Positions 5,562 to 17,412 are shown, counted from the first letter of the stretch. The stretch: 64,000 bases of DNA from Chitinophagaceae bacterium (GCA_040404045.1 JBBAJN010000002.1:2514-66513); one strand, 5' to 3'. Numbers and translations are program-made. Notes: generated from the letters alone by a model not told the origin.

Positions 5562-6827
5562 TCACATCCGTCCTTTCATCATCATGTTCCAGTACAGCCA
5601 TGGTAAACCGTATTTTTTCAACACCCACATGCTCCACCGTTCTTTAGAGGTATCTACAAATTTGGAGAGCAAGGGATCGCTATCCCTCACATTATCATAC
5701 TTGAATTCGCAGAGCAACATCTTACCGTAACCGGTAACTATGGGGCAGGAGGAATATCCTTCATAGACTTTTTCGCTCAACGGCAGGCTCTGCAGGATGC
5801 GGAGGACGTTTTCCACCACGATGGGCGCCTGCTTGCGTATCGCTGCTCCGGTTTTTGCCGTTGGCAAGGCGGCAGAATCACCCAGGCCAAACACGTTCTT
5901 ATAGTGCGGGTGCTGCAGGGTGTGAATATCAACATTCATCCAGCCTTTGTTAGGTCCTTCCTGATGCGCAAATGGTGACTGCTTAATAAAGTCCGGCGCA
6001 CTCTGCGGAGGAGCGAGATGCAGCATGTCGTAGTGCATAGTAATCAGATTATCGCCGCCCAGTTTCTCACCTAGTTTGACATCAAGGTCAGCTTCAGATC
6101 TTTTTGTGTCGGGCTTGATATATTGAAAGGTGATCTCCTGCTTAACAGGGTCAATACTTATGGGTTTATAAAACGGTTTGAAGTTTACGCGCTTCTTTTT
6201 CAGAATACGGTTCAACTCATCAGCAAATACCTTGGTACCAAAGATCACGGTACCCGGTGTTGCAAATACCACATTTGTTTTATCCCTCACGCCCGACTTC
6301 TCAAAATACTCTTCTGCCAGGTACATGATCTTTTGCGGAGCGCCACCGCAGCGTATGGGTGTAGCGGGTTGGGTGAAGATGGCGTTACCTCCCTTGAAAT
6401 CCTTCAGGATCCTGAATGTCTTCTCTGGATCGATATAGTTGCTGCATACCACATCTGTTTTCAATGCTTCACGTAATCCGGGCATGGCGTCAATATCCAT
6501 TTGAATACCTGCGCTGATGATCATGGCGTCGTAAGATATATCCCCACTGCCCTTTGTAGCTACTTGATTTGACTCGGGGTCAAAGCTTGTTACATAGTCC
6601 TTGATCCATTCAACACCAGGCGGGATGAGTTTCTTTTCATCCTTCTTTGTATCGTTGAAATTAAAAGCACCCGCGCCAACAAGCGTCCATGCTGGCTGGT
6701 AGTAATGCGTTGTATTGGGTTCAACAATCGCGATTTTGAGATTCTTATTTTTTCTGCGCAGCTGTGCAGCTGTCATGATACCTCCGGTTCCGCCACCGAC
6801 CACCAGGACATTGTAATGGGATTTCAT
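5562..6827 (-). CDS. sqr: Sulfide:quinone oxidoreductase (heterotroph-type SQR)
   Basis: Rossmann VVGGGTGG, HYYQPAWTLVGAG, cysteine motifs CGGAPQK and YSSCP, GDSAALPTAKTGAAIRKQ; sulfur-cluster context. Confidence 0.88.
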   Translation of the reverse strand: MKSHYNVLVVGGGTGGIMTAAQLRRKNKNLKIAIVEPNTTHYYQPAWTLVGAGAFNFNDTKKDEKKLIPPGVEWIKDYVTSFDPESNQVATKGSGDISYDAMIISAGIQMDIDAMPGLREALKTDVVCSNYIDPEKTFRILKDFKGGNAIFTQPATPIRCGGAPQKIMYLAEEYFEKSGVRDKTNVVFATPGTVIFGTKVFADELNRILKKKRVNFKPFYKPISIDPVKQEITFQYIKPDTKRSEADLDVKLGEKLGGDNLITMHYDMLHLAPPQSAPDFIKQSPFAHQEGPNKGWMNVDIHTLQHPHYKNVFGLGDSAALPTAKTGAAIRKQAPIVVENVLRILQSLPLSEKVYEGYSSCPIVTGYGKMLLCEFKYDNVRDSDPLLSKFVDTSKERWSMWVLKKYGLPWLYWNMMMKGRM

Positions 6828-6846
6828 AATGATGTATTTGATACCT

Positions 6847-6891
6847 GCAAGATAGAAAGGGGAGCGGTGTTAAATAGTGACAGATATCACA
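6847..6891 (-). promoter_or_regulatory. sqr promoter: CRP-like box AGTGA-CAGATA-TCACA (6876-6891) and -7 element TATCTTGC (6854-6847)
   Basis: Near-palindromic TGTGA-N6-TCACA match 22 nt from a Bacteroidota -7-type element; same geometry at three other cluster promoters. Confidence 0.75.
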
Positions 6892-6908
6892 ATACAATCA
6901 GCCAATAC

Positions 6909-8729
6909 TTACCGGAACTGATAATCGTATCCTTCGAGCTGGGTGAGTAAGGTCTGTGGTTCGTCGGTGGCGGTCATACGGCCTTCGATCTTAGGAGCAA
7001 CCGGTGAATGCGCCGCCAGGTATTCGCGGATGATGGGATGAAGTGAGTAGCCGAGCCTGGTGGGATTTAAAACGTTTTCGATTCTGCAAATCATATCATC
7101 AGGATCTCCATCACGCTCACAGGCCACAATACGATACATTTTACTTTTATCAAGGGGTTGGCCCTGCACTTTTACCCAATTCACGCGCTTACCTTTTTCA
7201 TTGCCAGCGGTAATGTTCACCTCCATTCCTGAATACCTCACCACCCAACCACCAAATCTTTCAGATGCTTTCTTTGCAAAAACATTATGCAATTCCTTTT
7301 CCAACCATTGCAACAATTTCTCGCCAGTGATTTCGCCCGACTTAGCCTCGCTGTCCACTGGCAACATGTTCCATAAAAAATCATTGGTGATCTCGCGGGT
7401 ACCTTTTTTATCATCTACCACCAGGGGAGGACAGAACCTGAATCCATTGCTCAATGCAATGTCCGGCTTGAACTTCCAGAAGATCGCATCCGTGATCAGG
7501 TTGTCCATGGTATTTTCCAGCACAAAATACCTGACCAGGGTGTTCTTTGTGCTGCCGATCACTTTATCCAAATCTTTCTTAAATGGTTCCCTGGCTTTTC
7601 TAACCAATTCAACCATCTCAGGATCTGGCTTATACTTCAACGGATCCACTTCCAACAGTTTGTACTGGGTCTCCTTCACCTTTCCGTCTTCAATGATGAC
7701 GTCAAGTTTGGCTACAAAAGAACCAAATGCGCCCGGCTCCGTGACTTTGGTATATTTTGCCTCTATGGGTTTCCTTACCCGCTCGTGGGTATCTGCTCCA
7801 AGAATGAAATCAGCTCCTTCCACCGCCGGGTTGTTTCCAAGGTCCAGCTGCTGTGCTATCCCCAGGTGAGTGACCAGAAACACCATGCTACATTTTTCAT
7901 AATCCCTGAGATAACGAATGTACTTAGCCACATTGGTCTCAGGGTGTGTGAATTTTATTCCAGCTGAATAGGCGGGAGATTGCCGTCTGGGGGTTAGGGG
8001 ATCATTGTATCCAATAAACCCGATCTTGGTCTGGCCAAAATGCGTGGTCCAGTAGGGCGGGAACATCATTTCGCCTTTTCGTTCGGTATCGTCATGGAAC
8101 ATATTGGCGCAGATCTTCTGGGCCTGGTAACCGCCCATGTCTTTCATGAGGTTCTCCTTGCCATATACTACTTCCCAGTTTCCCGGCAGGATCAGATCGT
8201 AGTCGATATTATTAATGAGGGGAACAATGGCCCGGCCTTCGGTAAGGGAAGCCACGCCAGAACCCTGGAAGCAATCGCCCCCATCAATGATCAGGGTGTT
8301 TGCCGGATTTTCCGCTTTCAAAGTTCTCAGCATGGTCTTCAGCGTTGCGAAACCACCGAGTTTCCGATACGTTGCTTTGCCATTCTCCCAGAAAAACTCG
8401 TCGTGCGTGTTCAGCTGTGCGTGGATATCCGCGGTATGCAACAGGGTGATCCGCTGCACTTTCCCCTGCGCCAGCGCGGAAGATTTCTTCCATGACGCTT
8501 CATCTGACAGCTCGTTCCCCTGAGCAGAAGCGATCTGCGGTATGCCGGCCATACCCAGGCCAGCGAGCGACATCTTTTTCAGAAAATCCCGACGATCTGT
8601 GCCGGGGTCACGGCCATGATCCGGGTTCGTTCCCTCGATTCCCTGCTTCTCTACGTGAGCTTGTTTAGAATTCGCAAGATCCGTCCCATGGAGAGTGATG
8701 TTATCGTTTGCATGATGGTGCTGACACAT
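6909..8729 (-). CDS. Tat-exported SoxB-like thiosulfohydrolase (5'-nucleotidase/metallophosphoesterase fold)
   Basis: Twin-arginine signal TDRRDFLKK. Metallophosphoesterase motifs LHTADIHAQL, DGGDCFQGS, PGNWEVVYG, GADTHER, and SoxB-like SNGFRF instead of nucleotidase NxGGIR. Sulfur-gene context. Start uncertain. Confidence 0.75.
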   Translation of the reverse strand: MCQHHHANDNITLHGTDLANSKQAHVEKQGIEGTNPDHGRDPGTDRRDFLKKMSLAGLGMAGIPQIASAQGNELSDEASWKKSSALAQGKVQRITLLHTADIHAQLNTHDEFFWENGKATYRKLGGFATLKTMLRTLKAENPANTLIIDGGDCFQGSGVASLTEGRAIVPLINNIDYDLILPGNWEVVYGKENLMKDMGGYQAQKICANMFHDDTERKGEMMFPPYWTTHFGQTKIGFIGYNDPLTPRRQSPAYSAGIKFTHPETNVAKYIRYLRDYEKCSMVFLVTHLGIAQQLDLGNNPAVEGADFILGADTHERVRKPIEAKYTKVTEPGAFGSFVAKLDVIIEDGKVKETQYKLLEVDPLKYKPDPEMVELVRKAREPFKKDLDKVIGSTKNTLVRYFVLENTMDNLITDAIFWKFKPDIALSNGFRFCPPLVVDDKKGTREITNDFLWNMLPVDSEAKSGEITGEKLLQWLEKELHNVFAKKASERFGGWVVRYSGMEVNITAGNEKGKRVNWVKVQGQPLDKSKMYRIVACERDGDPDDMICRIENVLNPTRLGYSLHPIIREYLAAHSPVAPKIEGRMTATDEPQTLLTQLEGYDYQFR

Positions 8730-8780
8730 GTGAAGAGGGGTTTTGAAATGAATGAGAGGCGGGTAGTTTTTTCGCCCGTT

Positions 8781-9737
8781 TTACCTGGCTTTTGGCCACG
8801 GGCCATATTTATGCTGTTGTTCACTCAGGCTATCTGCATAAGGACCAAATGGATGGTCGCGGGGCTTTTTGGAAATATCCGGCCAGTCTTTCGACAGATC
8901 CTTGGTTGGCCGCGGCATGGAGTTGATATACGCGGCTACATCCCAGGACTGTTCATCGGTAAGTACCTGGTTCTTATAACTCGCCGTGCCAAAAGGCATG
9001 TTGTACTTCACAAAACCGGCTAAACGGGACAGGCGGTAAAGCCCTGCCCCCACATTATAACTGCCCTTACCCCAAACAGGCGGATATACGTACCCGAACC
9101 CTTCCGCGTTCGGTTGTCCTTCTCCGTTAGCACCATGACAAACCTTACACTGCTGGGTATACACCAATTCACCCTTTGCCGGATCAGCAGGTCTGTCAAG
9201 CGGTTTTAGATCCGGGATACCTGAACCCCTGGGTTTTGTTTTCGCGGGGATCTCATCGCCCACCCAATGCATGTAGGCCACGATGGCTTTCATCTCCTTA
9301 CTGTTGGTATCCAGGGCCTTCCCGTTGAGGCTTCTTTCCATGCAATCGTTCACCCGCTTCGGGATGGTTTCGATACCGCCGCTCCTGGCCCTGAACATGG
9401 GATAATTGGCCACTACGGCACTATAGTTATTCCCATATGGCAGGGTGCCTGCGCCCAGATGACAGTTCTGGCAATTCATGCCATTGGTCAGTGGTGCTAC
9501 CTTCCCTTTTGGACCAAGGTAATAGGACGTATTTGAAATGAGCTCATAACCGTAATTCGCCAGCGTATCCTCTGGTTTGATCTGATACTTGTTCCAGCCC
9601 TGCCATGGCGCTTCCTCAGGCTGGGCAAGCGATGGCACATCAGCCTTGTTGTTACAGGCGGGGATCATGAGCGCTGTAACGCCATACAACCCAGCGAGCA
9701 AAAGAGGACCTATTCCATATTGCAGGAGCCTTGTCAT
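8781..9737 (-). CDS. tsdA: Thiosulfate dehydrogenase / tetrathionate reductase TsdA, diheme cytochrome c, probable lipoprotein
   Basis: Two CxxCH motifs (CQNCH, CKVCH), active-site Cys in RVNDCMERSLNG, PPVWGKGSYNVGAG, heme-2 ligand region KYNMP, WDVAAY. Lipobox-like IPA/C after a hydrophobic leader. Confidence 0.82.
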   Translation of the reverse strand: MTRLLQYGIGPLLLAGLYGVTALMIPACNNKADVPSLAQPEEAPWQGWNKYQIKPEDTLANYGYELISNTSYYLGPKGKVAPLTNGMNCQNCHLGAGTLPYGNNYSAVVANYPMFRARSGGIETIPKRVNDCMERSLNGKALDTNSKEMKAIVAYMHWVGDEIPAKTKPRGSGIPDLKPLDRPADPAKGELVYTQQCKVCHGANGEGQPNAEGFGYVYPPVWGKGSYNVGAGLYRLSRLAGFVKYNMPFGTASYKNQVLTDEQSWDVAAYINSMPRPTKDLSKDWPDISKKPRDHPFGPYADSLSEQQHKYGPWPKAR

Positions 9738-10265
9738 TTAGTTAGGAAGTTTATCCCTGAAATAGCCATAGACCCAGGTACCGGCTATAGCGCTGACCAG
9801 AGAAACAATGATCACGGTAGCGCCCGTGCCGATCTGCGCAAACAGTGGTCCTGGGCAAGCACCCGTCATTGCCCAACCCAGTCCAAATATCAATCCGCCA
9901 TAGACCTGGCCTTTGTTGAACTTCTTATCGGGGATAACGATCTTTTCACCATAAATGGTTTTGATATTGAATTTCTTGATCAACAATACAGAGATCATGC
10001 CCACGGCTATGGCAGAGCCGATCACCCCAAACATGTGAAAGCTTTGCAGGCGGAACATCTCTTGTATCCTGAACCAGGAGATCACCTGTGACTTCACCAG
10101 CGCAATACCAAAAAGGATGCCCATGATGAGATATTTCATCAAATGCCACCAGGGTTGGTGTTCTTCCATATTGTTCACACACTGCGCATCCAGCGACCGC
10201 GTCTCAAAGTCTGTATTCTCTTCAAACTTTTTCGCTTTTTCCAAAAATTCTGTAGTAGGCTGCAT
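9738..10265 (-). CDS. YeeE/YedE-family sulfur-compound transporter half (DUF6691-like)
   Basis: KSQVISWFRIQEMFRLQSFHMFGVIGSA and GWAMTGACPGP; 4-5 TM segments. Start uncertain. Confidence 0.85.
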   Translation of the reverse strand: MQPTTEFLEKAKKFEENTDFETRSLDAQCVNNMEEHQPWWHLMKYLIMGILFGIALVKSQVISWFRIQEMFRLQSFHMFGVIGSAIAVGMISVLLIKKFNIKTIYGEKIVIPDKKFNKGQVYGGLIFGLGWAMTGACPGPLFAQIGTGATVIIVSLVSAIAGTWVYGYFRDKLPN

Positions 10266-10275
10266 CTGTAATTTT

Positions 10276-10839
10276 TTAGAGTTTCATAATGAAGGGCAGG
10301 ATCAGGTTTGCCATAAGGAAGCCGCCCGCCATAAAACAACAGGTTGCTATCACAGAAGGCCACTGCATACTGGATATACCCATGATCGCATGACCAGAGG
10401 TGCAACCACCGGCGTATCGTGTTCCAAATCCAACCAGGAAACCACCCACCACCATCAGGATAAATCCGCGGGCAGTGAATAAGGCTGGCCAGTTGAAGAC
10501 TTCAGCGGGAACCATGTTCCGATAGTCTGTCACCCCATAACTGCTCAGCTCACTGGCCAAGGCAGGGTTCACGTGAACCGCTTCGGGATCGGACAACAGG
10601 AAAGTGGTCAGCACAGCGCCAACGATAATGCCAGCCACAAAGAGCAGGTTCCAGGCTTCTTTTTGCCATTCATATTTGAAGAAAGAAATGTTTGCCGGGA
10701 TACAGGCAGCGCAAACATGCCTGAGCGAGGACGAGATGCCAAAGGTTCGATTACCCAATATCAGCAGGATGGGAACCGTTGAACCGATGAGGGGACCTGC
10801 CACATACCATGGCCAGGGATGCTTTAACCATTCTAACAT
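10276..10839 (-). CDS. YeeE/YedE-family sulfur-compound transporter half
   Basis: PWPWYVAGPLIG, FGISSSLRHVCAAC, FLVGFGTRYAGGCTSGHAI. Confidence 0.88.
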   Translation of the reverse strand: MLEWLKHPWPWYVAGPLIGSTVPILLILGNRTFGISSSLRHVCAACIPANISFFKYEWQKEAWNLLFVAGIIVGAVLTTFLLSDPEAVHVNPALASELSSYGVTDYRNMVPAEVFNWPALFTARGFILMVVGGFLVGFGTRYAGGCTSGHAIMGISSMQWPSVIATCCFMAGGFLMANLILPFIMKL

Positions 10840-10859
10840 ATGATTGAATTTATATGACT

Positions 10860-10905
10860 ACAAAATACCTAATAATTAACTAAGGGGAAAGTGACGATTA
10901 TCACA
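10860..10905 (-). promoter_or_regulatory. yeeE-yeeE-tsdA-soxB promoter: CRP-like box AGTGA-CGATTA-TCACA (10890-10905) and -7-like TATTTTGT (10867-10860)
   Basis: 9/10 match to TGTGA-N6-TCACA, overlapping the porin stop codon and 23 nt from the -7-like element. Confidence 0.72.
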
Positions 10906-12325
10906 GACGATAGTTAATGATAAAGTTAAAGTGATGCATATTCACCTTATTGATGATCAGGCGGGCGTTTTCCGGGCTTTCAGCAGCTGGCTTATAAGTA
11001 TACAGCAATTCCATCTGAAGGCCTTTCCAGAATCCGGTGAAATGGTAGTTGAGATCAATCAGGAATTGGTGATAGGAAGGCATGGCATATTTATTCAACG
11101 CCACATTGCCGGTCCCCGGGAGTTTATAATAACCGTAACTGATCTCAGACCGAAAGTTTTTTTTCCATTCCTGGTGCAGGTTCACCGAAACTGCATGAAC
11201 ATCGCCGGACCCTTCGTTCCTTTCCCTTTTGATGAAGGTATACATGGGCTCACGGCCCCACTCGCGCGGGAACAGGAAGCGTCCATCAGCGGTGATGCGG
11301 GTATAGTTCAACAGCAGTTTCGACTTCATCACCTGGTAACCCAGACGGCCAGAGATCACGTTCGATTTTTGCCGGGGATCAAAATAGGTTTTCGACAACG
11401 AATCATTCCCCCCACCGTTGATAGCGTTCTGGTGGATGTATTGCAGGCCTGCCAGCAAAGCGGTTTTGGACGATAATGCCCATTTAGCATCAGACTGAAG
11501 CATCACGGTATTAAAGATATTGTCCGTGTAGTATTCCCAGCCTTGTATCGTCCAGTCCGGCTTCAACTCATACGTGAGGCCTAGTACACCTACTCCAGAC
11601 GAATTCAGGTTAGCTTTGTAGTTACTTCTCTTGCCATCGGTTCCGAATCCCGAGGGGTAAATACCCATAGATTCATCCACTCCAAACCATCTTACTGTTC
11701 CTCTTGGTGATATTTTTGAGATCCATCCACCCTGTAGCCTTAGTCGCGGTATCTCATGCATATCGATCCAAAGCCCTTGCTCGCCCGTAGGCCGCATCCT
11801 GCCATCCTGGGGATTGATGAACGGCGTGTTGATGTTTTGCTTACCGAAGGTCAATGAGGATTTCCTGTAATGATATCTGATGTTGAAATCTTCCAGCCTG
11901 TCCATATCATTCTTATTCTCAAAATCTTCCATATCGAACTGGCCCACTTCGTAGCGGTTGAATGCTCCGGTAGCAGGGTCGGGTTTTGCGAGGTCAGAAG
12001 ATGCCAGGTTCCAGACAAAAAAACCACCTACAGTAAATTGGAAGCCCTTGTAAATACCGGTCTGGTATTTGAGTCCGCCACCAAAAGCATAGGCATAGTA
12101 ATCAGTCAGTTCTTTTTCATTCTGAGTAGTCATGTAGTACAACCTCAGGTGCAAATCCATTTCACTGCCCTTTTTCAGCGCATAAGTCAGAGTAGTGGTG
12201 TCCTGCGGCTGGCCTTCGCGATGCGCATGCCCGCCGCCGTCAGCCACAAAAGGCCCCGGGTTTTGTGCCCATGAAAAAAATGGCAGACACAGCCATGCGG
12301 ATATGAACAATAGAATGACCTTCAC
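10901..12325 (-). CDS. Outer-membrane beta-barrel porin (OprD-like)
   Basis: Signal peptide (GTG start, ..FSWA/Q), alternating amphipathic beta-strand pattern, C-terminal FNFIINYRL. Confidence 0.7.
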   Translation of the reverse strand: MKVILLFISAWLCLPFFSWAQNPGPFVADGGGHAHREGQPQDTTTLTYALKKGSEMDLHLRLYYMTTQNEKELTDYYAYAFGGGLKYQTGIYKGFQFTVGGFFVWNLASSDLAKPDPATGAFNRYEVGQFDMEDFENKNDMDRLEDFNIRYHYRKSSLTFGKQNINTPFINPQDGRMRPTGEQGLWIDMHEIPRLRLQGGWISKISPRGTVRWFGVDESMGIYPSGFGTDGKRSNYKANLNSSGVGVLGLTYELKPDWTIQGWEYYTDNIFNTVMLQSDAKWALSSKTALLAGLQYIHQNAINGGGNDSLSKTYFDPRQKSNVISGRLGYQVMKSKLLLNYTRITADGRFLFPREWGREPMYTFIKRERNEGSGDVHAVSVNLHQEWKKNFRSEISYGYYKLPGTGNVALNKYAMPSYHQFLIDLNYHFTGFWKGLQMELLYTYKPAAESPENARLIINKVNMHHFNFIINYRL

Positions 12326-12392
12326 GATCTGGGTGATTAGATTTTATTGGCCTGGAGAAAATTTGCCGTCTTCGGTAGCCGGCTCCTTATAT

Positions 12393-12420
12393 GGAAGGTT
12401 AAAGAAGGAAGGTTAAAGAA
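12393..12420. repeat. Perfect 14-bp tandem duplication GGAAGGTTAAAGAA x2
   Basis: Read directly at 12393-12406 and 12407-12420. Confidence 0.9.
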
Positions 12421-12444
12421 AGGGGGAAGTAGAAACATCCCCCT
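12415..12444 (-). terminator. Intrinsic terminator downstream of the MBL-rhodanese gene
   Basis: Minus strand AGGGGGA-tgtttctact-TCCCCCT followed by TTCTTT. Confidence 0.75.
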
Positions 12445-12475
12445 GTTTAATCCTCAAACACACTAATGAAAAAAC

Positions 12476-13891
12476 TTATAGTAACGTAGACGGGCAAACG
12501 TAATCAGTCACTTTGAACTTGCCCGACTCCTTGATCGCCTTGAATCCGCCCTTAACGTCAACGAGGTTATCGTAGCCCCTTGCACGAAGGGTGGAGATAA
12601 AGATCATTGACCTGTATCCGCCTGCGCAATGCACATAGTAGGTTTGGTTCTTATTGATCTGCTGCATGCTGTCGTTGATGAAATCCAACGGTGCGTTCTC
12701 AGCATCCACAATATGTTCTGAATCATATTCACTTTTCTTTCTTACATCGAGCACATTCGCTCCCTGGGCGACCAGTCCCTGCAGTTCATCTACTTCTACC
12801 TGCTGGATCATATCCACTTCCTGGCCGGAACGCTGCCAGGCATCGAAGCCTCCTTCGAGGTAGCCTATACAAAAATCATAGCCCACCCTCGCCAGCCTTG
12901 TCACTACTTCCTCTTCACGCCCGGGTTCTGTGATGATCAGGATCTGCTGCTTGATATCCGGGATCATGGCACCCACCCAAGGTGCGAAGCTTCCGTCGAT
13001 GCCGATATTCACACTGTTGGGAACAAAGCCTTTGGCAAAATCCTCTGGCTTCCTGGTATCCAGGATCAGGGCTCCGGTTTCATTGGCTGCCGCTTCAAAT
13101 GCTGCGGGTGAGAGTGCGTGCTGGCCGCGCTTCAAGACATCCTTGATACTGTCGTACCCCTGGATGTTCATCAACACATTCATTGGGAAATAGGAAGGTG
13201 GCGCTACCAGACCGGTCAGTACTTCTTTCTTAAATGCATCCCTGGTCAATGCGGGGTTAAGCGCATAATTGGTTGATTTCTGGTGGCCAAGGGTATCCGT
13301 AGTTTCTTTGCTCATGTTCTTGCCACAGGCGCTACCGGCACCGTGCGCAGGATACACGATGATATCGTTTGCAAGCGGCATGATCTTGTTTCTCAGGGAA
13401 TCATATAAATGCCCTGCGAGAATATCTTCTGTGAGTTCTGCTTTTACTTTTTGGGCGAGGTCAGGACGGCCCACATCACCGATGAAGAGGGTATCTCCTG
13501 AGAACAAACCGATTTCCTTACCCTGCTCATCGATCAGCAGGAAACAGGTGGATTCCATGGTATGTCCGGGTGTATGAATCACCTTGATCAATACATCGCC
13601 TAATCTGAGGATCTCGCCATCGGCAGCAATGTGCGCATCAAAGGATGGTGCTGCAGTAGGGCCATACACAATGGTTGCGCCGGTTTCTTTAGCGAGGTCA
13701 ATGTGTCCGGAAACGAAATCAGCATGGAAGTGGGTTTCCAATACATACTTGATGACGGCACCATCTTTCTTAGCCCGCTCGATGTAAGGTGCTACTTCGC
13801 GCAGCGGATCGATGACCGCAGCTTCGCCCTTGCTCTCGATGTAATAGGCTCCCTGTGCCAGACATCCTGTATAGATTTGCTCTACTTTCAT
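12476..13891 (-). CDS. Persulfide dioxygenase-type MBL-fold hydrolase fused to rhodanese domains (CstB-like)
   Basis: ETHFHADFVSGH, HTPGHT, FSGDTLFIGDVGRPDL, PAHGAGSACGK; C-terminal rhodanese DVRKKSEY...VHCAGGYRS. Start 13891 or 13900. Confidence 0.9.
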   Translation of the reverse strand: MKVEQIYTGCLAQGAYYIESKGEAAVIDPLREVAPYIERAKKDGAVIKYVLETHFHADFVSGHIDLAKETGATIVYGPTAAPSFDAHIAADGEILRLGDVLIKVIHTPGHTMESTCFLLIDEQGKEIGLFSGDTLFIGDVGRPDLAQKVKAELTEDILAGHLYDSLRNKIMPLANDIIVYPAHGAGSACGKNMSKETTDTLGHQKSTNYALNPALTRDAFKKEVLTGLVAPPSYFPMNVLMNIQGYDSIKDVLKRGQHALSPAAFEAAANETGALILDTRKPEDFAKGFVPNSVNIGIDGSFAPWVGAMIPDIKQQILIITEPGREEEVVTRLARVGYDFCIGYLEGGFDAWQRSGQEVDMIQQVEVDELQGLVAQGANVLDVRKKSEYDSEHIVDAENAPLDFINDSMQQINKNQTYYVHCAGGYRSMIFISTLRARGYDNLVDVKGGFKAIKESGKFKVTDYVCPSTLL

Positions 13892-13911
13892 AAGAATCAT
13901 TTTACGGTTTA

Positions 13912-13956
13912 CAAATTTCTGAAGTTGAAAGCTCTTTAACTATGACATTTGTCACA
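13912..13956 (-). promoter_or_regulatory. MBL-rhodanese promoter: CRP-like box TATGA-CATTTG-TCACA (13941-13956) and -7-like GAAATTTG (13919-13912)
   Basis: Same 22-nt spacing as the sqr and tauE promoters; the -7 element has one mismatch. Confidence 0.62.
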
Positions 13957-13971
13957 GAATGAGATAATATT

Positions 13972-14772
13972 TTACTGGAAGAATAACTCCTTGACAATGA
14001 TGTAGAGACCCATCACCATTACAAACCAGCCGAACCCTTTTTTGAGCGTCGTTGGATTGATTTTTCTATTAAAGGAGTTTCCTATAAATAGACCTATGAT
14101 GGCCAGTGCAGTTACGCTGAGCAGTAGCTTCCAATCCATCACCGTATGCGACATATCTCCCAAAAAGCCGATCAGGGATTTCATGGCGATGATCAACAGG
14201 GAAGTACCCACGGCCTGTTTCATCGGCAGTTTGCTGAGGATCACCAGGGCGGGAATGATCAGGAATCCGCCGCCAGCGCCCACCAATCCAGTCAGGCCGC
14301 CCACCAGGACGCCTTCCAGCATGATCAGGGGATAATTGAACTCCTGTGGCTGCACCGCCTCCTTATCCATGGCGGTAGCTTTGTCGCGGATCATACTGAT
14401 AGATGCTGCGGTCATGAGCACCGCGAACAGGAGCATGATCACCAGTGGTTTAGAAAATTCAAACGATCCGATGGTCATGATGTGTTCCGGAATGGCCGGT
14501 ACGATCCATTTGCGGGTGGCATAGACGGACACGATCGAAGGAATGCCGAAAATGATGGCCGTCTTCATGTTCACCATACCCTCCTTATACTTAGGGAAAA
14601 CGCCAACCAGACTGGTTGCGCCAACAATGAACAGGGAATAAGCCGTTGCCAAAACCGGATCGATATGGAACAGGTAAACCAAAACAGGCACGGTGAGGAT
14701 GGAACCTCCTCCTCCGATGAGTCCCAGGGAAATGCCAATGATCAGTGATGCCAGGTATCCAATTATTTCCAT
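13972..14772 (-). CDS. Sulfite exporter TauE/SafE family
   Basis: LGLIGGGGSILTVPVLVY, GLVGAGGGFLIIPALV, KQAVGTSL; about 8 TM segments. Confidence 0.92.
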   Translation of the reverse strand: MEIIGYLASLIIGISLGLIGGGGSILTVPVLVYLFHIDPVLATAYSLFIVGATSLVGVFPKYKEGMVNMKTAIIFGIPSIVSVYATRKWIVPAIPEHIMTIGSFEFSKPLVIMLLFAVLMTAASISMIRDKATAMDKEAVQPQEFNYPLIMLEGVLVGGLTGLVGAGGGFLIIPALVILSKLPMKQAVGTSLLIIAMKSLIGFLGDMSHTVMDWKLLLSVTALAIIGLFIGNSFNRKINPTTLKKGFGWFVMVMGLYIIVKELFFQ

Positions 14773-14775
14773 GAT

Positions 14776-14821
14776 GCAAAGCTAACGCGACCGATTTCCC
14801 TGAACGGTGACAGAAATCACT
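14776..14821 (-). promoter_or_regulatory. tauE promoter: CRP-like box GGTGA-CAGAAA-TCACT (14806-14821) and perfect -7 element TAGCTTTG (14784-14777)
   Basis: 22-nt spacing between box and -7; the -7 element ends 4 nt before the ATG. Confidence 0.75.
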
Positions 14822-15460: not shown

Positions 15461-15543
15461 GGAGCAAGCGTTTTAGAAGATTAGGGTGTGCCACTCAAAT
15501 GTACTGCTTTAAGAGAAGTTAAAAAATGTCGCCACTCATCAGC

Positions 15544-17412
15544 TCAACGGCCCATATAAACCATCAGGATCTGGACGTCGCTTGGGTTGATCCCAGAGAT
15601 CCTCGATGCCTGACCCAGTGTGCGCGGTTTGATGCGGTTCAATTTTTCACGCGCTTCATTGCTGATCGCCTGTACTTTTTTATAATCGAAGGCTGCTGGT
15701 ATTTCCAGTTCTTCCAGTTGGCTCATCCTGGAAACCAGTTCTTTCTCTTTACCGATATAGATATCGTATTTCACTTGTATCTCTGCCTGTTGCAGGTGAT
15801 CCCTGCTTTCCTGCCCGAGCGCTTTGTTCACGGTAGGAATGTGGGCCATCAGTTCCTCTAATGAAATATTTGGTCGGAGTACGATCTGCCCCAGCTTTTG
15901 CTTTTGGGTAAGTCCTGCTGATTCTTTGGACTCCAGGAATGCATTGGCTTCTGCTGGGTCAACCGTCAGTTCGGCCATGATCTTCTTGATCCTTTCCACG
16001 GCATCCTGCTTAGCAGTGACGGCCTCCATCCGGTCTTCTTTTGCCAGTCCCAGATCAAAACTACGCTTCGTGAGGCGCATATCGGCATTATCCTGCCGAA
16101 GAAGGGTCCTGTATTCGGCCCTGCTTGTAAACATCCTATAAGGCTCCTCAGTGCCTTTACTGATCAAATCGTCGATCAGCACCCCAATATAGGCCTCACT
16201 TCGCTTCAGGATCAGTGGTTCCTGTTCCCTGACTTTCAGGTGAGCGTTCATTCCGGCCATTAGTCCCTGGCAGGCAGCCTCTTCATAACCGGTGGTCCCG
16301 TTGATCTGTCCAGCAAAGAACAAATTAGCTAACTGCTTGGTTTCCAATGAGTAATGAAGTTGGGTGGGCGGAAAATAGTCGTACTCAATGGCGTATCCCG
16401 GCCTGAACATCCGGCAGTTTTCAAAACCCGGGACCCGCCTCAGGGCGGCAAACTGAACGTCCTCAGGAAGAGAAGTTGAAAAGCCGTTTACATAGATCTC
16501 GATGGTATTCCAGCCTTCCGGCTCTACAAACAGCTGGTGCCTTTCACGCTCCGCAAACCGATTGATCTTGTCCTCTATGCTGGGACAATACCGGGGGCCT
16601 ACGCCTTCGATTCGCCCTGCATACATCGGACTTCTGTCGAACCCTGTTTTTAGGATGTCGTGCACCGACTGGTCCGTATATGTGATCCAACAACTCCTTT
16701 GTTCTGAAGGCTTTATTCTTTCTATGTCCTTGTAAGAAAACCCACTGATCTCCTCATCACCTTTCTGCTCCTCCATTTTTGAATAGTCCAACGACCGTCC
16801 ATCTATCCGGGGCGGTGTGCCAGTTTTAAGCCTGTCGCTTTCAAACCCTAATTCAAGAAGTTGCTCGGTAATGCCGGTTGCTGCCTTCTCGGCCATCCTT
16901 CCTCCGCCAAACTGCTTTTCCCCAATGTGTATCAAGCCGTTAAGAAAGGTTCCATTGGTCAGCACCACGGCTTTTGACTCAATATGATGCCCCAAGCCTG
17001 TGATTACACCCTGGCAACGACCGTCTTTAACAATTAGCCCATTGACCATATCCTGGTAAAAGTCAATGTTCGGTGTGCCCTCAAGCATTTCCCGCCACCT
17101 CTGGGAGAACAGCATCCGGTCACTTTGTGCCCTTGGACTCCACATGGCGGGGCCCTTGGACTTGTTGAGCATCCGGAATTGGATCATGGTTTGATCCGTC
17201 ACGATGCCGGAATAGCCTCCCATGGCGTCAATCTCCCGCACAATCTGGCCCTTTGCAATACCACCCATGGCTGGATTACAGCTCATTTGGGCAATGGTCT
17301 GCAGATTCATGGTCACCAGCAAAACTTTACTCCCCATGTTGGCTGCTGCTGCTGCGGCTTCGCATCCAGCATGGCCTGCACCTACTACTATGACATCGTA
17401 TCTCGGAAACAT
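15544..17412 (-). CDS. mnmG: tRNA uridine-5-carboxymethylaminomethyl(34) synthesis enzyme MnmG (GidA)
   Basis: VIVVGAGHAGCEAA, MSCNPAMGGIAKGQIVREIDA, GPRYCPSIEDK, FFAGQINGTTGYEEAA, FTSRAEYR. Confidence 0.98.
   Translation of the reverse strand: MFPRYDVIVVGAGHAGCEAAAAAANMGSKVLLVTMNLQTIAQMSCNPAMGGIAKGQIVREIDAMGGYSGIVTDQTMIQFRMLNKSKGPAMWSPRAQSDRMLFSQRWREMLEGTPNIDFYQDMVNGLIVKDGRCQGVITGLGHHIESKAVVLTNGTFLNGLIHIGEKQFGGGRMAEKAATGITEQLLELGFESDRLKTGTPPRIDGRSLDYSKMEEQKGDEEISGFSYKDIERIKPSEQRSCWITYTDQSVHDILKTGFDRSPMYAGRIEGVGPRYCPSIEDKINRFAERERHQLFVEPEGWNTIEIYVNGFSTSLPEDVQFAALRRVPGFENCRMFRPGYAIEYDYFPPTQLHYSLETKQLANLFFAGQINGTTGYEEAACQGLMAGMNAHLKVREQEPLILKRSEAYIGVLIDDLISKGTEEPYRMFTSRAEYRTLLRQDNADMRLTKRSFDLGLAKEDRMEAVTAKQDAVERIKKIMAELTVDPAEANAFLESKESAGLTQKQKLGQIVLRPNISLEELMAHIPTVNKALGQESRDHLQQAEIQVKYDIYIGKEKELVSRMSQLEELEIPAAFDYKKVQAISNEAREKLNRIKPRTLGQASRISGINPSDVQILMVYMGR

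Follow-up and report, generated by a model that had tools for sequence, protein, structure and literature searches.

We analysed a 64,000-nt stretch of DNA from a Chitinophagaceae bacterium (GCA_040404045.1 JBBAJN010000002.1:2514-66513; hereafter the window, with coordinates counted from its first letter), in which a gene for a Crp/Fnr-family regulator stands beside a cluster of sulfur genes. The minus strand carries every gene between 5562 and 17412, and gene identities were assigned with Pfam and NCBIfam profile searches (Table 1). In the direction of transcription, mnmG and the regulator gene (crp) are followed by genes for a sulfite exporter (tauE), a persulfide dioxygenase (PDO)-like protein fused to a rhodanese (PDO-rhodanese), an OprD-like porin, the yeeE operon with its intergenic gaps of 10, 0 and 51 nt, and a sulfide:quinone oxidoreductase (SQR)-like flavoprotein (sqr). 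Four palindromic boxes precede tauE, the PDO-rhodanese gene, the yeeE operon and sqr. We consider it fairly probable that the 209-amino-acid Crp/Fnr protein is a dedicated activator of a sulfide and reactive-sulfur detoxification regulon, reading its signal through cysteines.

Table 1. Genes, predicted operator boxes and -7 elements of the cluster, and candidate sites on other contigs (C) of the same genome.
Feature	Position	Strand	Assignment or remark
mnmG	15544-17412	-	first in transcription order, before the Crp/Fnr regulator gene
Crp/Fnr-family regulator, 209 amino acids	14831-15460	-	Pfam PF00027, PF13545, PF00325
predicted operator box 4, AGTGATTTCTGTCACC	14806-14821	-	upstream of tauE; 24.3 bits with the matrix from other genomes
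-7 element of tauE, TAGCTTTG	14777-14784	-	perfect TAnnTTTG; register fixed across orthologues
TauE/SafE-type sulfite exporter (tauE)	13972-14772	-	Pfam PF01925, E = 1.3e-45
predicted operator box 3, TGTGACAAATGTCATA	13941-13956	-	upstream of PDO-rhodanese gene; 33.1 bits, top genome-wide match
-7 element of PDO-rhodanese gene, GAAATTTG	13912-13919	-	read from the sequence
PDO-like metallo-beta-lactamase (MBL)-fold and rhodanese fusion (PDO-rhodanese)	12476-13900	-	Pfam PF00753 and PF00581
OprD-like porin	10901-12325	-	Pfam PF03573
predicted operator box 2, TGTGATAATCGTCACT	10890-10905	-	upstream of yeeE operon; 25.3 bits
-7 element of yeeE operon, GTATTTTG	10861-10868	-	read from the sequence
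yeeE operon body (yeeE(N)-yeeE(C)-cytochrome c-SoxB-like)	6909-10839	-	Pfam, NCBIfam
two half-size YeeE/YedE proteins	10276-10839, 9738-10265	-	Pfam, NCBIfam
SoxA/TsdA-like dihaem cytochrome c	8781-9737	-	Pfam, NCBIfam
SoxB-like hydrolase	6909-8729	-	268 bits, below the 550-bit equivalog cut-off
predicted operator box 1, TGTGATATCTGTCACT	6876-6891	-	upstream of sqr; box alone 18.5 bits
irregular -7-like element of sqr, TATCTTGC	6847-6854	-	best register 1 nt nearer the box
SQR-like flavoprotein (sqr)	5562-6827	-	Pfam PF07992; NCBIfam type III SQR model below cut-off
candidate site	C5:10710		upstream of single-domain rhodanese gene
candidate site	C65:6282		upstream of second PDO-rhodanese gene
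candidate site	C60:7973		upstream of genes for YgaP-like transmembrane protein (PF11127) and thioredoxin
candidate site	C7:48326		upstream of genes for S-adenosylmethionine (SAM) methyltransferase and DUF3179 protein
candidate site	C215:2834		upstream of trxB-like gene; weaker
candidate site	C136:5584		upstream of thioredoxin gene; weaker

Read on the plus strand, the four 16-mers begin at 6876, 10890, 13941 and 14806. A previous reading of this DNA (the original prediction) had proposed from them a Crp/Fnr regulon of four sites with a fixed operator-promoter geometry, under a protein bearing an SREVISR recognition helix and a C-x5-C pair; direct inspection of the sequence found the boxes, the -7 elements, the helix and the cysteine pair where it had placed them. 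The spacing of 22-23 nt from box to -7 element was correct as well, the best register at sqr being 1 nt shorter. In the sense of transcription, the -7 octamers occupy nt 22-29 past each box, and the box centre lies 29.5 bp from the first -7 base at three of the four sites, the fourth (sqr) being 1 nt off. All four boxes occupy promoter gaps within a single cluster and agree in orientation and register. At tauE the -7 element ends 4 nt before the ATG, a distance of 4-12 nt in many orthologous loci, so that tauE mRNA is probably leaderless or nearly so. The OprD-like porin gene had no box of its own in the upstream sequence inspected (12326-12475).

The window contains four occurrences of the pattern shared by the boxes, where 0.8-0.9 would be expected, and a count of four was attained in 2 of 100 shuffles. 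This count is in itself weakly significant and was derived post hoc, and for that reason we did not rely on it. Its weakness leaves room for the view that the boxes are chance palindromes or the sites of another, unlinked transcription factor, a view that we regard as close to refuted in the face of conservation, register, genome-wide specificity, co-variation with the regulator and the presence of a single Crp protein with an R-E--R helix. Chance in particular is excluded because the boxes belong to a single cluster, orientation and register, are conserved in orthologous loci, stand before sharp -7 columns, and are matched by the matrix specificity and the pattern counts of the genus.

Orthologues of the regulator were detected in 25 of 41 related genomes, and 20 loci were retrieved at full length. 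Within the genus, mnmG-crp is followed by yeeE and other sulfur genes, and the box TGTGAY-N4-RTCACA recurs in same-genus genomes upstream of yeeE, cytochrome c-soxB, tauE/PDO and sqr; the copy ahead of yeeE was kept in 12 of the 14 loci having that gene. A scan of one genome per species added 80 loci (51-67% identity) from Chitinophagaceae, Chitinophaga, Pedobacter, Flavobacterium, Dyadobacter, Cytophagales and Saprospiraceae, most of which carry crp-tauE-PDO, often with yeeE and sqr. About 70 of these 80 loci have at least one sqr, PDO, rhodanese, TauE or YeeE gene within 10 kb, and 80 boxes lie upstream of their tauE, PDO, yeeE or sqr genes. Across about 100 loci, the regulator gene adjoins its box-bearing targets.

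The -7 element was conserved in the same register. TTTG ended exactly 29 nt past the 16-mer in 54 of 86 promoter instances, with CTTG there in many others. A frequency matrix was then compiled from 71 promoters of other genomes, selected on their TGA/TCA cores only and not on the -7; its spacer carried no information, and nAnnTTTG stood out sharply at columns 38-45 (1.2-1.7 bits). This is the Bacteroidota -7 element, TAnnTTTG (10.1101/172254). The composite pattern GTGAY-N4-RTCAC-N22-24-ANNYTTG was found 39 times in 16 genomes of the genus and once in the reversed control, compared with 4 times and 5 times, respectively, in ten genomes of other families without a Glu-type orthologue. On this comparative evidence, the boxes can be regarded as functional operators and not as chance occurrences.

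The genome (3.41 Mb, 98% complete) was scanned with the matrix from other genomes, covering box and -7 element at fixed spacing. A matrix made from the four window sites, which is circular for those sites, was replaced by it, and three hits of the first scan that lacked the -7 register (C40:9374, C124:808 and C13:42791) were treated as noise. Twelve matches reached at least 20 bits, all of them intergenic; each of five shuffled genomes gave 0-1 such matches. The window contributed three of its four sites at this threshold, that of sqr scoring lower (16.6 bits for box and -7), and the scan also yielded the candidate sites on other contigs listed in Table 1. The motif therefore does not occur at background frequency, a point on which the original prediction had proposed to be checked by such a scan of the genome and of orthologous clusters, and in the orthologous loci it is conserved. 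Genus-wide, the genes downstream of such sites are tauE-PDO2, yeeE, PDO, cytochrome c-soxB, rhodanese and a DUF983-like protein gene. The YgaP-like/thioredoxin pair follows a composite site in three genomes of the genus, and this pair, the rhodanese and tauE-PDO2 recur as targets in other genomes of the genus. At the trxB and second thioredoxin genes, the box scores were weak (about 13 bits). The proposal of a four-site regulon thus stood as to the regulon, through box conservation, genome-wide specificity, gene neighbourhood and helix-box co-variation, and fell as to the number four, there being at least two further sites, those of the rhodanese and the second PDO, that are well supported as predicted members. 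As reconstructed here, the regulon is larger than four sites and coherent, spanning sulfide oxidation, persulfide handling, sulfite/thiosulfate transport and thiol reduction.

A few side observations concern these genes. At C7:46351-48341, a box with perfect -7 register precedes the genes for the SAM-dependent methyltransferase and the DUF3179 protein, and through this site the regulon may extend to the methylation of thiols or sulfide. The SoxB-like hydrolase is paired with the TsdA/SoxA-like cytochrome (6909-9737) in a window that contains no SoxYZ. Directly 3' of the PDO-rhodanese gene, a G+C-rich hairpin (GGGGGATGTTTCTACTTCCCCC, 12415-12445) followed by TTTCTTT resembles a terminator. Short runs of N (X in translation) interrupt genes at about C7:47800, C6:6880 and C60:3300; these are masked stretches and not biology.

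The regulator matched PF00027, PF13545 and PF00325 above their cut-offs (38.7, 35.7 and 24.8 bits), with an N-terminal beta-barrel of the cyclic nucleotide monophosphate (cNMP)-binding type and a C-terminal Crp-type helix-turn-helix. Its AlphaFold2 (AF2) model, with a mean predicted local distance difference test score (pLDDT) of 84.9, has a long dimerisation helix (119-163) between the two domains, and the best Foldseek matches were T. thermophilus CAP, PDB entry 3dv8, FNR, NtcA and CRP (E from 1e-13 to 1e-15). Two identities within the superfamily were rejected: cyclic AMP (cAMP)-CRP, because the cAMP-contacting Glu72, Arg82 and Ser83 are absent, and FNR, because the four cysteines that ligate [4Fe-4S] (three N-terminal and one central) are missing. 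The protein contains SSREVISRLLKK, and its recognition helix (SSREVISR) carries Arg182, Glu183 and Arg187 in the places of the CRP triad Arg180/Glu181/Arg185, which reads TGTGA half-sites. Only three Crp/Fnr proteins are encoded in the genome, and an R-E--R helix is present only in that of the cluster; the other two (helices ATESLIR and SSRQTVT) lack it and were for this reason rejected as binders of the boxes. Upstream of crp itself, a perfect TAnnTTTG (TACATTTG) lies at 15496-15503, 36 nt before the ATG, with no box ahead of it. The gene thus appears to have its own box-less promoter, and the regulator is probably not autoregulated here. In a few other genomes (three loci), crp and its target genes are divergent and have a box between them.

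Protein and box are also linked by natural variation in the helix. Among loci whose regulator has Glu183 (n = 102), 151 of 158 composite sites have base pair 7 occupied by G in one or both half-sites, while 12 of 14 sites in loci with Val183 (n = 16) have A or T at this base pair in both halves (Fisher p = 4e-12, a statistic that ignores phylogeny). In loci of more distant orthologues with the helix SRVVISR, yeeE, PDO, tauE and a YgaP-like gene are preceded by boxes of the form TGTAAC-N4-GTTAC or GTAAC, which keep the register. One member of the Val subfamily (L162) has reverted to SREVISR, and its box reads TGTGAC-N4-ATCACC. In 12 Flavobacterium loci the operators are systematically hybrids of one TGTGA and one TGTAA half (e.g. 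TGTGAT-AAAT-GTTACT), despite Glu183. In CRP, experiments have placed the action of Glu181 at operator position 7 (PMC2677863), and operators bearing A or T there selected for Val181, which no longer discriminates at that base (PMC2677863). The natural shift from Glu to Val within this family would match that classical E181V result. The co-variation agrees with the earlier proposal of a CRP-like helix reading GTGA half-sites, and binding of the boxes by the cluster's Crp/Fnr protein is, as a prediction from comparative data, strongly supported.

The geometry of the promoters bears on how the regulator would act. The fixed arrangement at the -33 region put forward originally was borne out, and it corresponds to a class II site overlapping -33. 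In E. coli, 29.5 bp separate a class II CRP site (-41.5) from base -12 in the -10 hexamer. If the TA of the -7 element is equated with -12/-11 of that hexamer, the identical distance from the box centre to the first -7 base would place the operator at about -41.5. The acidic loop RESDEGSE aligns in hhalign with the activating-region-3 loop of CRP (KDEEGKE) and is possibly a kept polymerase contact. From the invariant phasing and this conserved loop we infer activation rather than repression. The opposite arrangement, a repressor of the CstR or SqrR/BigR kind that sits over the -33 region and keeps RNA polymerase out until released by the signal, would fit the overlap of the box with the -33 position, and the well-studied dedicated persulfide sensors are all repressors except FisR (PMC13467558). 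It is nevertheless disfavoured, because repression needs no such phasing, and the -7 spacing is invariant to the base pair in about 100 promoters of several orders and equals the class II distance of CRP and FNR. The 71 box promoters also have no conserved TTG at -33, though this is near chance in generic promoters too, and we consider repression very improbable. When TTG was looked for at N17-23 in order to reveal a missing -33 element, 6 of the 71 box promoters and 33 of 229 generic promoters (TAnnTTTG) had it; both values are near chance, and the comparison was discarded as uninformative in this genome.

The regulator has only two cysteines, Cys78 and Cys84, in the sequence NACALSMICA, and no N-terminal cysteine motif. 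In a profile alignment (hhalign) with E. coli CRP, Cys78 falls beside Gly71/Glu72, and the phosphate-binding cassette has Cys84 in its short helix; Leu80, Gln89 and Ala90 stand where CRP contacts cAMP through Glu72, Arg82 and Ser83. Among 81 orthologues (51-67% identity), G75-x-A77-C78-A79-x-S81-x-x-C84 and Ser91 are 100% conserved, and positions 89 and 90 vary, position 89 being E, Q or K; no conserved Arg or Lys takes the place of CRP Arg82 in this set. In the wider family, Cys78 is universal in all homologues examined, including distant ones. A related subgroup (SCIMSFLGGLHH, helix ARVVVSR) has no second cysteine, yet stands beside PDO/TauE genes; it has TGTAAC boxes in the same register, keeps a His-rich stretch (seven loci) and may use a variant sensing mechanism. 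The mechanism can therefore not be a Cys78-Cys84 bridge throughout the family, and Cys78 emerges as the common candidate for the sensing residue, with Cys84 as a feature of the subfamily. The original idea that the C-x5-C pair reads sulfide or persulfide is thus a plausible hypothesis, qualified in that only Cys78 is universal.

In the mechanism that we propose, a dimer of the regulator would bind the palindrome TGTGAY-N4-RTCACA through Arg182/Glu183/Arg187 and, from an operator at about -41.5 over the -33 region, would touch RNA polymerase as a class II activator. Its targets would be, in the window, tauE, PDO-rhodanese, the yeeE-yeeE-cytochrome c-SoxB-like operon and sqr, and elsewhere the single-domain rhodanese, the second PDO-rhodanese and the YgaP-like membrane protein with its thioredoxin; another thioredoxin, trxB and the methyltransferase are possible extra targets. 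The signal would be read inside the old phosphate-binding cassette for cAMP by the invariant Cys78, aided in this subfamily by Cys84. Sulfane sulfur derived from sulfide would persulfidate or bridge the cysteines and thereby give the DNA-binding, activating form. The predicted operators, their geometry, the content of the regulon and the link between regulator and box are carried by comparative data; as for the chemical signal, the best candidate appears to be sulfane sulfur from sulfide, acting on Cys78 alone or together with Cys84.

Several observations weigh against this proposal. Six positions apart (i and i+6), Cys78 and Cys84 span a short helix (79-85) that the AF2 model predicts with a pLDDT of only 60-73 in the loop, and the subgroup without the second cysteine is nevertheless linked to the same genes. 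The transcription start and the placement at -41.5 are read from the -7 element only, the window's own sqr promoter has an irregular -7 that is one base out of register, and the co-variation statistic takes no account of phylogeny. Finally, the regulon holds thiosulfate and sulfite genes as well as thioredoxins, which fit other signals too.

Two other signals deserve consideration for the same regulator and regulon. First, thiosulfate, sulfite, an organic thiol or a persulfide could be bound non-covalently in the old cAMP pocket, with the cysteines lining it. Most Crp/Fnr proteins are indeed switched by a pocket ligand, such as cAMP or, in NtcA, 2-oxoglutarate, and NtcA is the second-best structure group by sequence. 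The YeeE/TsuA-like thiosulfate transporters, the TsdA/SoxA-like cytochrome, the SoxB-like hydrolase and the TauE sulfite exporter in the regulon would suit such ligands, as would the one-cysteine subgroup. We still consider this unlikely: a residue as invariant as Cys78, even in distant homologues, is typically reactive or liganding, the presence of SQR, PDO, rhodaneses and thioredoxin suggests sulfide or sulfane sulfur over oxyanions, and an anion would find no conserved Arg or Lys in place of CRP Arg82, position 89 being occupied by E, Q or K. Second, the protein could be a general sensor of thiol oxidation or disulfide stress (oxidants, electrophiles), with a switch like that of Flp and no specificity for sulfide. 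Two cysteines per monomer, the lack of an FNR-type cluster motif and candidate sites upstream of thioredoxins and trxB are in keeping with such a sensor, but the trxB and second thioredoxin sites are the weak ones, and the core of targets shared across lineages (tauE, PDO-rhodanese, yeeE and sqr) includes no peroxidases, catalase or methionine sulfoxide reductases. This second alternative seems improbable to us, and covalent reading of sulfane sulfur by Cys78 stays our preferred explanation.

To our knowledge, no dedicated reactive-sulfur sensor has been described for Bacteroidota, and the regulator studied here is probably this missing sensor. An orthologue was present in 28 of 301 genomes and 18 of 144 genera in an even sample of the phylum. 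With slightly more doubt than confidence, we put forward the wider proposal that it represents a fourth structural class of dedicated reactive-sulfur sensors, a class II activator of Crp/Fnr fold whose cAMP pocket has been turned into a cysteine-based receptor for sulfane sulfur. Across Bacteroidota (Chitinophagales, Sphingobacteriales, Flavobacteriales and Cytophagales), it would serve as the chief regulator of sulfide detoxification and be present in roughly one in ten genomes, and a natural Glu-to-Val change within the family would have re-tuned operator specificity as in CRP E181V. Bacteroidota are abundant in soil, water, sediment and gut, where sulfide is common. If correct, this would provide a new protein scaffold and an activator logic for persulfide sensing, and a new effector chemistry for the Crp/Fnr superfamily. 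In the fixed spacing from box to -7 element, nature also provides a data set for studying class II activation at the unusual sigma-A promoter of Bacteroidota. Annotation could gain as well: at least 7,954 database clusters match the regulator at E <= 1e-10, and among the best 120 of them the only name listed is 'CRP/FNR family transcriptional regulator'. The proposal can be tested, with a defined operator, promoter geometry, target list and two candidate residues at hand, as well as the 3dv8 structure and orthologues in culturable Flavobacterium, Chitinophaga and Pedobacter.

A 2026 review lists the CsoR, ArsR and Fis families as those of dedicated reactive-sulfur sensors, with OxyR, PerR and MarR-type proteins as secondary ones (PMC13467558), in agreement with the original statement that known sulfane-sulfur sensors belong to other families. 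In our full-text literature searches we found no description of a dedicated sulfide or persulfide sensor of the Crp/Fnr type. The genes linked to CstR (CsoR), SqrR/BigR (ArsR) and FisR (a sigma-54 activator) are the same as here, namely sqr, PDO or CstB-like PDO-rhodanese, rhodaneses, TauE and YeeE/YedE (PMC13467558), and these sensors also have conserved cysteines in their sensor part. In the known persulfide sensors, a conserved cysteine pair forms di- to tetrasulfide links with sulfane-sulfur donors. In contrast to them, our regulator belongs to an unrelated fold family, with only Crp/Fnr domains detected by Pfam, and is predicted to be a class II activator of the sigma-70 type instead of a repressor or a sigma-54 activator. 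In Chlorobaculum tepidum, a different, spacer-less CRP-like motif has been reported, for which the binding protein is uncertain (10.1101/172254).

The best solved relative by sequence is PDB 3dv8 (EUBREC_1222 of Eubacterium rectale, E = 2e-30), which shares the C-x5-C pair (MCLLSASC, at aligned positions) and likewise bears an R-E--R helix (SHREVITR), but comes from a Firmicute and is uncharacterised. Another Crp/Fnr-family protein, the FNR-like Flp of Lactobacillus casei, reportedly uses a thiol-disulfide switch (Gostick et al. 1998), its DNA binding being controlled by two cysteines in each monomer; it likewise has no Fe-S motif. Its cysteine positions, operator and regulon differ from those described here, its response is to oxidation, and it is not known to be linked to sulfur oxidation.

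A close parallel in DNA recognition is E. coli CRP at class II promoters, which shares with our regulator the fold, the Arg/Glu/Arg triad, the TGTGA-N6-TCACA operator, the distance of 29.5 bp from centre to element (-41.5) and the acidic loop of activating region 3. The two proteins differ in that the cAMP contacts are absent here and a conserved cysteine pair occupies the phosphate-binding cassette, and in that a local regulator of one pathway, partnered with the -7 element nAnnTTTG, replaces a global one. The Val orthologues of the family pair with A or T at base pair 7 as do the CRP Glu181Val mutants of Ebright and colleagues (via PMC2677863), although here the switch would be a natural, evolutionary one within a single family, as read from co-variation. 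Class II regulators of the Crp/Fnr kind are already known; what would be new is such an activator with a cysteine-bearing pocket dedicated to sulfide detoxification.

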